Shown: piece after piece, positions 39,409 through 44,419 of the stretch
How positions within the stretch are numbered: position 1 is the first letter of the stretch
Layout: the number at the start of each line of letters is the position of its first letter
Source: Shigella phage SHBML-50-1
Direction: 5' to 3' (one strand)
Length of the DNA: 64,000 nucleotides
Sequence record: KX130864
Notes under the pieces: model-generated
Database searches by the model: none
Seen by the model: only the letters and a program-made list of their open reading frames with translations
What the model was told of the DNA's origin: nothing
Position numbers and translations under genes: made by a program

Positions 39409-40269
39409 TTACACCGCCATCTTTCCTTTAATAGGAGGGTGTGATTCATAGTTGTTAAGAACAAAATTATGTGGCTTTGCGAATTGACTCAACCAAAATA
39501 CCTGCGATTCTGTGTCCCATTCATCAAATTCATCTGGAAATTTTAATTGCAATTCGCATAAATCCATAGGTTCACGACATAAAATTTCTTTACATTGTTC
39601 TACGTGATTCATATAGATATGAGTATTACCACCAGAAAATATCAAATCTCCCGGAATAAGATTACACATCTTAGCTACAATATGAACTAACGTAGCATAT
39701 GATGCAATATTAAATGGAAGACCGAGGAAAACATCTACCGAACGTTGATACCACTGAAGGTCAAGGTATCCATTACGCACATTAAACTGATAGAACATAT
39801 GACAAGGCGGTAATGCCATATATTTAAGTTCAGCTGGATTCCACGCAGAAACAATTTGACGCCTATCATTTGGCAGTTTTTTAATACGATCAATAACTTC
39901 TATAATTTGATCTACACCGCCAAAATCACGCCACTGTTTTCCATAAATTGGACCAAGTTCACCGCTATGGTATCCTAAATCTTTTGCTTGATTTTCGTAA
40001 TTTTCATCCCAGACTGTTTTGCCTTGAATTAATGAATCATGTTGAATTAATCGCAAATCATTGACATTTGTGCTTCCTGATAAAAACCATATTAGCTCAG
40101 CAATGCATGCATTCCAGGCGAGCTTTTTAGTTGTTACTGCAGGAAAACCTTTGGTTAAATCCCAACGCAATTTAGTACCGAACAAAGCAATTGTTCCTGT
40201 GCCCGTTCGGTCATCGGTTTCATAGCCATTTTCAAAAATGTCTTTAATTAAATCTTGGTATTGTTTCAT
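39409..40269 (-). CDS. td: thymidylate synthase, uninterrupted
   Basis: 286 aa continuous ORF; active-site region PPCH; no group I intron. Confidence 0.95.
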
Positions 40270-40306: not shown

Positions 40307-40660
40307 CTAAATAATCAACGGTTTAGCATCAAATTTTCTCTCAATTTCAGGCGTGAAATATAATTCTTTACCGCGTTTGGAAAAGCGACCAATAATATGA
40401 TAATTATTCTCATCAAACGTGATATTACCAATATCCATAGCTTTCAACCAAATATCGATATTTCTATCCAGCTTTATGTCAAAATTCCAATACGGAGAAC
40501 TATTACCGAAAATACTACAAGCGGATTCAGTGAAACAACTGCTATAAATCTTGTCTTTAGGAACTACTAATTGATAGACACCTTTAATAAACTGAGGACC
40601 CTGCCACTTTGGCTGTTTCTCATCTTTTTCTAATAGAATAGGGTAATAATTAAAATTCAT
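40307..40660 (-). CDS. hypothetical protein inserted between frd and td
   Basis: 117 aa ORF exactly filling the frd-td gap; weak SD; no recognisable motif. Confidence 0.55.
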   Translation of the reverse strand: MNFNYYPILLEKDEKQPKWQGPQFIKGVYQLVVPKDKIYSSCFTESACSIFGNSSPYWNFDIKLDRNIDIWLKAMDIGNITFDENNYHIIGRFSKRGKELYFTPEIERKFDAKPLII

Positions 40661-40679: not shown

Positions 40680-41638
<959 letters not shown>

Positions 41639-41691: not shown

Positions 41692-42051
41692 TTATATTAT
41701 CTCCCATCGAAAAGGGTCAGGAGCATATCCGATAGAGTTAATCATTTTAACTAAAGTTACCATTCCTTTGTTAACTGCTTGTGCGATTTCATCAAAAACT
41801 TCATCGCTATCATCATAAAGGTCATTAAAAAGTTCTAACACGTTCTTCTGAACTTTTAATTTATGACCAACAATCTCGCCTACAGTAAATTCGTTTCCGC
41901 CGATTCCAGTGTAAAACGTAATTACACCAGTTAACAGACTTTCGCGAGAATCTAGGTCATGTGATAAATTAATATAAGCCATCCCGGGTGCAGTTTTAAG
42001 TTGGCAACGAATTCTTACTTGGGTAATTCCGGTTACATGAATGTCGGACAT
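41692..42051 (-). CDS. hypothetical protein (frd.2)
   Basis: 119 aa ORF. Confidence 0.5.
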   Translation of the reverse strand: MSDIHVTGITQVRIRCQLKTAPGMAYINLSHDLDSRESLLTGVITFYTGIGGNEFTVGEIVGHKLKVQKNVLELFNDLYDDSDEVFDEIAQAVNKGMVTLVKMINSIGYAPDPFRWEII

Positions 42052-42061
42052 ATTATTTTCC

Positions 42062-42304
42062 TCAAATAGACTTTTTCACAATTTTCCAATCAGCTTTAAA
42101 CTGATCAACGTCAGAATGGTAAATCCAGAATCCTGCGCTTTCTCCGTCTTCATAAAGAGGACATCCATCGCATTCATCTTCCCATCCCATATCACGTAAA
42201 AGATGTTCAGCTTTTTCAATGAGTTCAGAATCTTTACCGATGATATTAAAATACCATTTACCTCTAACTTCTGAATCTTTGATGCTCTGGCGTTGTAATC
42301 TCAT
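42062..42304 (-). CDS. hypothetical protein (frd.3)
   Basis: 80 aa ORF; early promoter upstream. Confidence 0.5.
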   Translation of the reverse strand: MRLQRQSIKDSEVRGKWYFNIIGKDSELIEKAEHLLRDMGWEDECDGCPLYEDGESAGFWIYHSDVDQFKADWKIVKKSI

Positions 42305-42319
42305 TTTATTCTCCTCAGT

Positions 42320-42365
42320 AGTTGATAGGGTAATAGTATCACACTACTACCCTGTTGTAAACAAT
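42320..42365 (-). promoter_or_regulatory. early promoter for frd.3
   Basis: GTTTACA, 17 nt, TACTAT. Confidence 0.55.
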
Positions 42366-42625
42366 TATTTTTGAATTTTATCGAGCCACTTACCAAGCTT
42401 AATCATTTCTTTAGTAGCCTTTTCCATACTTCTGAACTTAACCAATAGAGGATAGGTATCGACACCAATAACTAAACTGGTTACAAGACTGTGTTCACCC
42501 ACAAGCCATAACGAATACGTTTGAATATCGAGCCCGTAATTTCTGTCTTTGTGGACCCGTACACCCATCACTTCAAATTTCTCACTAGCTTTTTCTACCG
42601 CATCCAGGAAATCGTCTTTAGTCAT
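42365..42625 (-). CDS. hypothetical protein
   Basis: 86 aa from ATG at 42625 (track start is a TTG extension). Confidence 0.45.
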   Translation of the reverse strand: MTKDDFLDAVEKASEKFEVMGVRVHKDRNYGLDIQTYSLWLVGEHSLVTSLVIGVDTYPLLVKFRSMEKATKEMIKLGKWLDKIQK

Positions 42626-42626
42626 A

Positions 42627-42992
42627 TTAGGCCTTAAAAGTTTTTCGCAAAAGTTCAATGATTTCGTCTACATTGTTTTCATCTACAATGCAGTGAATTT
42701 TTGTTACGCCAGAAACCTTGTCTTTGACTTCATCTTCTTCAGAAGTCGGTTCTTTATACTCGCGAAAACAATGAAATTCGTCTTCACAAACGTTAAAGTA
42801 AAAATGCTTTCCATTTGCGCATTCAATGTGTTTTATTACTCTAAATCCATCAACAAAGAAAGCTTCTTTAACTTCAAACCATCCGCCGTTTTCTTGAATA
42901 ATTTTAACTATTGATGAATTAGAACGTGGGCGATAATTAATAAATGTATCAATAAGTCTTGGAACAAGCTCATACTTTTTGCCGATATACAT
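42627..42992 (-). CDS. hypothetical Cys/His-containing protein
   Basis: 121 aa from ATG at 42992 with GAGGAAA SD; HIECANGKH...VCEDEFHC. Confidence 0.45.
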   Translation of the reverse strand: MYIGKKYELVPRLIDTFINYRPRSNSSIVKIIQENGGWFEVKEAFFVDGFRVIKHIECANGKHFYFNVCEDEFHCFREYKEPTSEEDEVKDKVSGVTKIHCIVDENNVDEIIELLRKTFKA

Positions 42993-43038
42993 TACGGTTT
43001 CCTCATTTTGATAGGGGCTTGATAGAGCCCCTTGATAA

Positions 43039-43266
43039 TTATTGTTCAATCAGTCCCATGTAAAATTCTGCGTCTTCAGAATCCATGCCATCACAATATT
43101 CATTAGCCATAAAGCGGGTGAGGTCTTCAAGAGGACCTTCAATAACAATTTGAATACTCCAAAACTTAGAATCTTGTACGCTTGTGATACTAAGTTCAGG
43201 ATAACGATTACGAATAATCTCTTCAATATATTCAAAATCAACGATGTCAATATCAACTTTAGCCAT
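43039..43266 (-). CDS. hypothetical acidic protein
   Basis: 75 aa from ATG at 43266 with AAGAGGAAA SD; early promoter upstream. Confidence 0.45.
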
Positions 43267-43299
43267 ATTATTTTCCTCTTTAATCATCAGCAGTATTGC

Positions 43300-43342
43300 C
43301 GATAGTTGTATAGTACCATGGAAGGACAAGGATGTAAACAGC
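43300..43342 (-). promoter_or_regulatory. early promoter for the 75-aa ORF downstream of gene 32
   Basis: GTTTACA, 17 nt, TACTATA; shares the gatagttgtatagtacca block. Confidence 0.55.
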
Positions 43343-43371
43343 TTTGTGAAAAAATTTTTGAAATAAAAAAG

Positions 43372-43390
43372 GGGACCTCTAGGGTCCCCA
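43372..43390 (-). terminator. gene 32 terminator
   Basis: ggggaccc-tcta-gggtcccc with U-run on minus strand. Confidence 0.75.
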
Positions 43391-43411: not shown

Positions 43412-44320
43412 TTAAAGGTCATTCAAAAGGTCATCCAGGTCCGTGTCATCAGCACTAGATGAACTGCCAGAGCTTGAGCTCATAAAATCATCTTCAGTTT
43501 TTGTTTTGAAGTCATCAACATTGAATGCATCCAAATCATCAGCAACTTTATCAGCTTTCTTAGCGGCAGTTGCTGCGGCACCACCCATAGCAGCAGTTCC
43601 CATAACTTGACTGAACTTAGTGCTCAGTTCTTCAAACGATTTGAATTTATCTTTAGAAGTCATTTCAGAAAGGTCAACCATTTGTTCGAACAGTTCTTTC
43701 TGGAAAGATTCATCGTCAATGTTTGGAATCGCAGATTGATTCAGGAATTTAGATTCATCGTAGTTACTAAATCCAGAAACCTGTTTAACTTTCAGTACAA
43801 AGTTAGCACCTTCCCACGGACAAGTTACATCAACTGGAGTTTCACCCATTTCAACATCAACCGCAATCATCGCGTTGATTTTATCCCAGATTTTCTTACC
43901 GAAACGATATTTAAATACTTTACCTTCGTTTTCTGGAGCAGCTGGGTCTTTTACAACAAGAATGTTAGCCCAGTAAGAAGTTTTACGTTTAACAAGACTG
44001 TACTCTTTATTGTCAGTGTTGTACAGATCATTTTTACTGATGTATTGACATACTGGGCAAGAATCGTAATCACCATGGGTAGATGAACATGTTTCAATAT
44101 ACCATTTACCATTTTTCTTGAAACCGTGATTTACAAGAATTGCGAATGGTGCTTGTTCATCATTTTTAGACGGAAGAAAACGAATTACTGCTTGACCGTT
44201 ACCCGCATTATCGAGTTTCAGTTTCCACTCGCCTTTATCTTCAGAAGAAAAACCACCTTTATTTCCAGCCAGTTTAGCCATTTGTGCAGCGAGTTCAGCA
44301 GTAGATTTACGTTTAAACAT
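43412..44320 (-). CDS. 32: single-stranded DNA-binding protein gp32
   Basis: 302 aa; zinc-binding H...C..C..C region; acidic Ser-rich C-terminus; operator leader upstream. Confidence 0.95.
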
Positions 44321-44400
44321 TTTTATTTCCTTTTTAATTTAATTAACAGTTGGTGCTATGACGATGTATGACCTCATAGCTGGTCAGTGAGATAATTATA
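44321..44400 (-). promoter_or_regulatory. gene 32 translational operator (A/U-rich UUAAA-repeat leader)
   Basis: mRNA leader reads UUAAAUUAAAAAGGAAAUAAAAAUG immediately before the gene 32 ATG. Confidence 0.6.
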
Positions 44401-44403
44401 ATA

Positions 44404-44411
44404 TATTTATA
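44404..44411 (-). promoter_or_regulatory. late promoter upstream of gene 32
   Basis: TATAAATA on minus strand in the 32-59 intergenic region. Confidence 0.5.
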
Positions 44412-44419
44412 ATAAGCAA

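Follow-up and report, generated by a model that had tools for sequence, protein, structure and literature searches.

Genes downstream of gene 32 in Shigella phage SHBML-50-1: frd.3, frd.2 and one indel-polymorphic ORF in a predicted T-even early transcription unit

Analysis of a 64,000-nucleotide stretch of Shigella phage SHBML-50-1 (KX130864; the whole stretch is referred to as the window) indicates that the locus downstream of gene 32 is very probably an ordinary T-even early transcription unit, with the addition of one known, indel-polymorphic ORF. Gene 32 (43412-44320, minus strand) is followed by three minus-strand ORFs of 75, 121 and 86 aa, with all genes around the locus on the minus strand and gene 59 upstream of gene 32. 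The initial annotation was right in reporting these three ORFs downstream of gene 32, and they are real genes, but it had placed them between frd.3 and gene 32, whereas the 75-aa ORF is frd.3 itself, the 121-aa ORF is frd.2, and the supposed frd.3 (42062-42304) is frd.1. The gene order in T4 is 32, frd.3 (75 aa), frd.2 (128 aa), frd.1 (80 aa) and frd; the statement that T4 has only frd.1 to frd.3 here was thus correct, but the names had been put one block too far downstream, with ORFs of 119 and 113 aa probably taken for frd.2 and frd.1. The apparent extra cargo beside gene 32 results from this shift in gene names: two of the ORFs are classic genes of T4, and the third, catalogued as a hypothetical ORF, is carried by well over 100 genomes on deposit.

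A 3.2-kb segment spanning the locus matches 817 phage records, which come almost entirely from Tequatrovirus and its T4-like relatives; identity is 96-97% in the top full-length matches (KMB40, RB51 and wV7). Gene identities were assigned by comparing the window with the annotated T4 record (NC_000866) and with RB51, using pairwise identity, Pfam and PHROG. The frd.3 gene (43039-43266, minus strand, 75 aa) encodes a protein identical to T4 Frd.3 in 75/75 residues, is 99% identical to T4 at the DNA level (226/228 nt), and matches Pfam Phage_FRD3 (PF05798) over positions 1-75 of 75 (8e-40, 135.6 bits versus a cut-off of 28.1). Its real start is the ATG at 43266, and the end coordinate of 43329 given previously marks a TTG further upstream, to which the ORF call had been extended too far. 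The 121-aa ORF (42627-42992, minus strand) is a T2-type allele of frd.2, with 87/119 residues identical to T4 and matches to Pfam FRD2 (PF03197; 1e-31, 109.8 bits versus a cut-off of 29) and phrog_622 (8.9e-36). The third gene, here called ORF86 (42365-42625, minus strand, 86 aa), has no Pfam match, is identical to RB51ncORF239c in 85/86 residues, corresponds to JS98 orf232, and matches phrog_4423 over positions 1-86 of 86 (4.7e-49). The next gene is frd.1 (42062-42304, minus strand, 80 aa), with 77/80 residues identical to T4 frd.1 and a match to DUF5417 (1.4e-33). Searches of PDB sequences with ORF86, FRD2, Frd.3, frd.1 and the 119- and 113-aa ORFs (ORF119 and ORF113) gave no relatives, and no literature on DUF5417, DUF7247, PF05798, PF03197 or phrog_4423 was found beyond PMC12152347, PMC11879866, PMC2839356, PMC4122927 and bioRxiv 10.1101/2024.04.04.588121.

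It is clear that frd.3, frd.2 and ORF86 are all genuine genes, since their Pfam and PHROG family matches (E-values from 1e-31 to 1e-49) are combined with purifying selection, dN/dS being 0.183 for frd.3, 0.198 for frd.2 and 0.037 for ORF86 (versus JS98). Reading of the sequence also gave a Shine-Dalgarno sequence at suitable distance before each ORF (AGAGGA, GAGGA and AAGG for the 75-, 121- and 86-aa ORFs, respectively). Small size alone would speak for one or more of the ORFs being a chance open frame, a prospect made negligible by the family matches, the strong purifying selection, the Shine-Dalgarno sequences and the conservation of the ORFs across genera and phage families. An antisense, TTG-initiated ORF (42549-42914, plus strand), likewise of 121 aa and distinct from Frd.2, overlaps frd.2 and ORF86, and is taken to be open by chance, given the conserved genes under purifying selection on the other strand. 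It is also highly improbable that all three ORFs are accessory cargo which T4 lacks, with anti-defence or host-takeover functions and a metal-binding 121-aa product. ORF86 is indeed absent from T4 and also from T2, the interval is plastic, and all three are small early genes, but the proposal is refuted for frd.3 (100% identical) and frd.2 (FRD2, 110 bits), as both are present in T4; absence from T4 thus fails for two of the three ORFs, and holds only for ORF86.

With regard to transcription signals, the gene 32 intrinsic terminator (43371-43389, minus strand; GGGGACC-CTAGA-GGTCCCC followed by a T-run) is conserved in T4 and T2. The early promoter that had been noted for the 75-aa ORF was confirmed at 43338-43310 on the minus strand, and is of the sigma-70 type with an extended -10 (TTTACA, 17-nt spacer, TG-n-TACTAT), with both hexamers conserved in T4 and T2 and a variable spacer. 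In T4, frd.3 (NP_049853) likewise comes right behind the gene 32 terminator, with identical early promoter hexamers, and the sole difference of note is the promoter spacer sequence, which in the window matches T2. The spacer between frd.3 and frd.2, which is 97% identical to T4 across 85% of its length, holds a GC-rich, perfect 7-bp hairpin lacking a T-run (43013-43032, minus strand; AGGGGCT-CTATCA-AGCCCCT, read from the sequence), and this hairpin may serve in RNA processing or stability. A further early promoter with extended -10 (42333-42361, minus strand), common to the T2, T4 and window slot variants, belongs to the unit from frd.1 onward, and is overlapped by a 12-bp stem-loop (42327-42353, minus strand; -15.2 kcal/mol, z -2.1). 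As judged from these sequence features, the predicted early unit consists of the promoter, frd.3, frd.2 and ORF86, with the gene 32 terminator as its border on one side and the promoter/stem-loop on the other. This tricistronic unit would end at the promoter/stem-loop, which in turn would start the next unit, comprising frd.1, two RB51-type ORFs and frd.

The first product of the unit, Frd.3, is an acidic protein of 8.8 kDa (pI 4.05), and its homologs are stand-alone proteins of 74-99 aa confined to T4-like phages. The T4 frd.3 mRNA is an early transcript and ranks with the most abundant of the phage RNAs that bear an NAD cap (bioRxiv 10.1101/2024.04.04.588121). Frd.3 may be pictured as a small, acidic, non-enzymatic binding protein made early, and the other two products of the unit are likewise proposed to be small binders without enzymatic activity that are made early in infection.

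The frd.2 gene combines a conserved and a divergent part. In the window Frd.2, residues 1-80 are predicted to form an N-terminal barrel of the SH3/LSm-like type, which is followed by an acidic, disordered linker (residues 81-95) and a family-invariant C-terminal module (GVTKIHCIVDENNVDEIIELLRKTFK). Invariant columns in 25 FRD2 proteins are mostly located in this C-terminal module (G-VT-IHC-V--NVD-IIELL-KTFK), each of them being present in the window protein, with a few hydrophobic and glycine positions falling in the N-terminal domain. In the DNA, the codons for the N-terminal domain are 96% identical to T2 over the full length and cannot be aligned to T4 or RB51 (7-15% coverage), whereas those for the linker and C-terminal domain have 95-97% identity to all three phages. 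T2 and T4 frd.2 share the FRD2 family, the two-domain plan and an identical C-terminal module with the window, but T4 Frd.2 (NP_049852) has 128 aa versus 121 aa in the window, which is without a 7-residue loop, and the window has four extra Cys/His residues specific to the T2-type allele.

An AlphaFold2 model of Frd.2, made from 26 input sequences with the T4 and RB51 rows left out, gave a mainly beta N-terminal domain with a pLDDT of about 95, with disorder in the acidic linker and a helix at the C-terminal end. In this model the protein has the layout of the LSm-like fold, with an N-terminal bent antiparallel beta-barrel, a flexible linker and a C-terminal domain, and the closest folds to the predicted barrel are the SH3-like domains of FeoA and IdeR. 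T4 Frd.2 has been described as an SH3/LSm-like barrel structurally related to GoF and MotB.1, with FeoA-like nearest neighbours (Kim et al. 2025, PMC12152347), and this picture is reproduced by our model of the T2-type protein. Alignment of the FRD2 profile with single sequences of T4 GoF and MotB.1 using hhalign was not significant (E-values of 0.04 and 0.03, respectively, probability <2%), and a CA-G...F-E motif was aligned with GoF. RNA binding by Frd.2 was put forward as a hypothesis in the same study, where only the GoF(D25Y) mutant altered RNA stability, and T4 frd.2 amber mutants plated normally (PMC12152347). In a CRISPRi-ART screen of T4, frd.2 was the sole gene scored as "Fit" among those of unknown function, with a marginal score of 0.83 (p 0.027) in the supplementary table versus 3.29 for gene 32, and frd.3 and frd.1 were "Not Fit" (PMC11879866). 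Following the proposal for the GoF/MotB.1/Frd.2 family, the barrel may bind RNA or a host protein, and would be joined via its flexible acidic linker to the invariant C-terminal strand-helix module. That the barrel is instead a Tudor-like domain binding RNA polymerase, as in the RNAP-interacting domains of CarD, Mfd and UvrD, rather than an RNA-binding LSm-like domain, we consider unlikely.

The 121-aa product had also been singled out for a Cys/His cluster that might bind metal. The string HIECANGKH...VCEDEFHC is present in the window Frd.2 (H55, C58, H63, C69, H74 and C75), but a metal site finds no support at the family level, as the ligands are not conserved. T2 Frd.2, also of 121 aa, carries the same string (HIECANGKHFYFN(I/V)CEDEFHC), and hence the "Cys/His protein" is the form of Frd.2 that a classic T-even phage carries. 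None of the six residues is invariant among 25 FRD2 proteins: C58 and C75 are common, although the RB51 type has M and Y in their place, and H55, H63, C69 and H74 are restricted to the T2/KRT47-type clusters, so that a set of four Cys/His ligands conserved across FRD2 homologs, as in a zinc module, was not found. The T2-type protein could nevertheless have gained an allele-specific zinc or iron site (H55/C58/H63/C69/H74/C75) which the family as a whole does not have. The six residues lie within 21 residues and are kept in T2 and in the T2-type and KRT47-type clusters (P0022-P0028), S16/STML-198-type proteins have five cysteines in the corresponding stretch, the RB51 type bears a different CxC...CxxxC set, and the nearest folds, the SH3-like domains of FeoA and IdeR, come from metal-related proteins. 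Such a site still seems a poor prospect, as C58 and C75, themselves not invariant, are the only ones of the six to recur widely. In addition, C58 and H63 are predicted to flank a hairpin tip, with C69, H74 and C75 some 6 residues or 20 Å further along, where the same strand ends, and this placement at opposite strand ends of the predicted secondary structure makes a single tetrahedral site unlikely. The SH3 domains of FeoA and the DtxR family are not known to be metal sites themselves.

ORF86, the remaining gene of the unit, is 98% identical to RB51 and 90% identical to JS98 at the DNA level. RB51ncORF239c and JS98 orf232 have the same place as ORF86 in the window, 1 nt past frd.2, and no difference was found. 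Comparison with JS98 gave a dS of 0.66 and a dN of 0.025, and the resulting omega of 0.037 makes it clear that ORF86 is coding and under strong purifying selection. The family is centred on a KDRNYGLD-QTYSLW-VGEHS core, the motif columns of which are invariant in 17 sequences, and comprises 21 clusters in a collection of 5.8 billion proteins. An exhaustive HMMER search of 1.84 billion proteins with the ORF86 profile gave 12 representative clusters, all of 64-98 aa, and there is thus no fusion or bacterial relative from which a function could be borrowed. Neither Pfam nor NCBIfam gave a match for ORF86, including when 17 family members were scanned at E <= 5. AlphaFold2 predicted an alpha-beta3-alpha fold (pLDDT 77) for which there was no informative structural match, and comparison with characterised anti-defence proteins (Acr, Acb1 and similar) gave no significant similarity of sequence or fold.

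ORF86 DNA was found in 154 records by nucleotide count, and tblastn detected the protein in 350 phage records, about 220 of which are T4-like phages at >=60% identity. The distant copies (28-60%) are found in Tunavirus ADB-2, in Webervirus and other Klebsiella siphoviruses, in Phapecoctavirus (ESCO5 and others), and also in Pectobacterium and Serratia myoviruses. In ADB-2, Webervirus KOX1 and Phapecoctavirus ESCO5, the homologs lie amid rows of small hypothetical early ORFs. In ADB-2, the gene two places upstream of the homolog encodes a 64-aa protein (2256-2450) that matches PF25180, "Phage antiviral trigger protein Gp54" (2.6e-36), and ORF86 homologs in T1-like phages thus belong to the same early accessory block as a protein known to be sensed by defence systems. 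Taken from this distribution and the predicted fold, ORF86 would be a stand-alone alpha-beta3-alpha protein, an accessory early gene moving between virulent phage families. We tentatively raise the possibility, to which we attach rather low confidence, that it is an early gene spread by horizontal transfer, has an uncharacterised fold, is common to three unrelated groups of virulent enterobacterial phages (Straboviridae, Drexlerviridae and Stephanstirmvirinae), and serves in host takeover or counter-defence, perhaps in concert with Frd.2, to which it would be tied in transcription and translation throughout the T4-like phages. An anti-defence role taken by itself is similarly putative, being possible though far from probable.

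The position of ORF86 relative to frd.2 is constant. Its ATG starts 1 nt past the frd.2 stop codon (TAA-T-ATG), and this spacing is kept in all five T4-like gene orders examined, though frd.3 and frd.1 move or are duplicated: besides the window and RB51, these are JS98 (32-frd.2a-frd.2b-ORF86-frd.3-frd.1), the VR20 type (32-FRD2-FRD3-FRD2-ORF86-DUF5417) and a metagenomic type (32-DUF5417-FRD2-ORF86-DUF5417). Other T4-like genera thus have two FRD2 paralogs (frd.2a and frd.2b in JS98) or two DUF5417 copies, with frd.3 elsewhere. The constant spacing suggests translational coupling and perhaps a functional link, and ORF86 may be translated by coupling to frd.2, to judge by the 1-nt distance only. 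The same adjacency, with ORF86 1 nt downstream of FRD2 in each T4-like context while frd.3 and frd.1 shift in place or copy number, could also mean that ORF86 is a dedicated partner of Frd.2, for instance a regulator or co-factor in a two-protein module. This is rather unlikely, as T4 and T2 have FRD2 without ORF86, the neighbours of the ORF86 homologs in ADB-2, KOX1 and ESCO5 are not FRD2-like by Pfam and hhalign, and the adjacency could stem from one ancestral insertion beside the promoter/stem-loop.

The slot between frd.2 and frd.1 was compared in an alignment of the window, T4 and RB51 together with T2. T2 has a 54-bp spacer with the early promoter only, the slot of T4 is 138 bp long and has the promoter followed by a 22-aa mini-ORF, and in the window, RB51 and JS98 the slot has ORF86 upstream of the promoter. 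The T4 mini-ORF (NC_000866, 146015-146083, minus strand; MFAPYIMAAVMLVCLYLLIKAC) is hydrophobic, unannotated and preceded by a GGAG ribosome-binding site, lies between the frd.1 early promoter and frd.1, and is absent from the window; among the 30 records listed, no feature is annotated under the junction. The T4 junction is present at full length in 197 records, and a search with it matched 547 places in 437 records, meaning that some genomes hold two junction copies; its first 40-53 nt are common to phages differing in slot content. The initial description of a plastic slot held up, as the frd-32 interval has at least five local gene orders. With a T4-like frd.3, a T2-type frd.2, and RB51-type ORF86 and ORFs past frd.1, the interval is a recombinational mosaic of known T-even modules.

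Modular shuffling in hyperplastic regions of T4-type phages has been proposed to be mediated by promoter-early/stem-loop (PeSL) elements (Arbiol et al. 2010, PMC2839356; Comeau et al. 2014, PMC4122927). The frd.1 promoter and stem-loop resemble these in that an early promoter is fused to a stem-loop at the boundary where the T2-, T4- and RB51-type slots diverge, which is an indel/replacement boundary between related genomes, but PeSL elements were defined in RB49/phi1 and other pairs, with other stem consensus sequences (PMC2839356, PMC4122927). The slot content may be swapped by recombination at the conserved promoter/stem-loop. Since a search of the 64-kb window that allowed up to 3 mismatches gave a single copy of this element, recombination there is something we infer.

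Finally, we also looked at the other genes in the 32-td interval, in which ORF86 and the ORFs of 119, 113 and 117 aa have no T4 counterpart. ORF119 (41692-42051, minus strand; DUF7247) and ORF113 (41258-41599, minus strand; phrog_8592) lie in the frd.1-frd interval, are 100% RB51-type DNA, and are absent from T4 and T2. The 117-aa ORF (40307-40660, minus strand; phrog_1928), located between frd and td, belongs to the RB32ORF229c family and is identical in 113/114 residues to RB32ORF229c of RB51, which is annotated in the RB51 record as flanked by a 9 bp repeat. The td gene (39409-40269, minus strand) is a continuous 286-aa ORF, and the window thus lacks the T4 td intron and I-TevI. On the other side of the locus, gene 59 directly adjoins gene 32 (44321-44419), and the segG homing endonuclease gene, which lies between them in T4 and KMB40, is absent.

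The main value of these results is the correction of the gene naming. At least three alleles (empty, 22-aa mini-ORF and ORF86) exist for the frd.2-frd.1 slot, all pivoting on one promoter/stem-loop, frd.2 has deeply divergent alleles of the N-terminal domain on an invariant C-terminal domain, and ORF86 is a small, strongly constrained gene which crosses phage-family boundaries. For these reasons, ORF86 and the Frd.2 alleles are reasonable, albeit non-urgent, candidates for accessory-gene screens.
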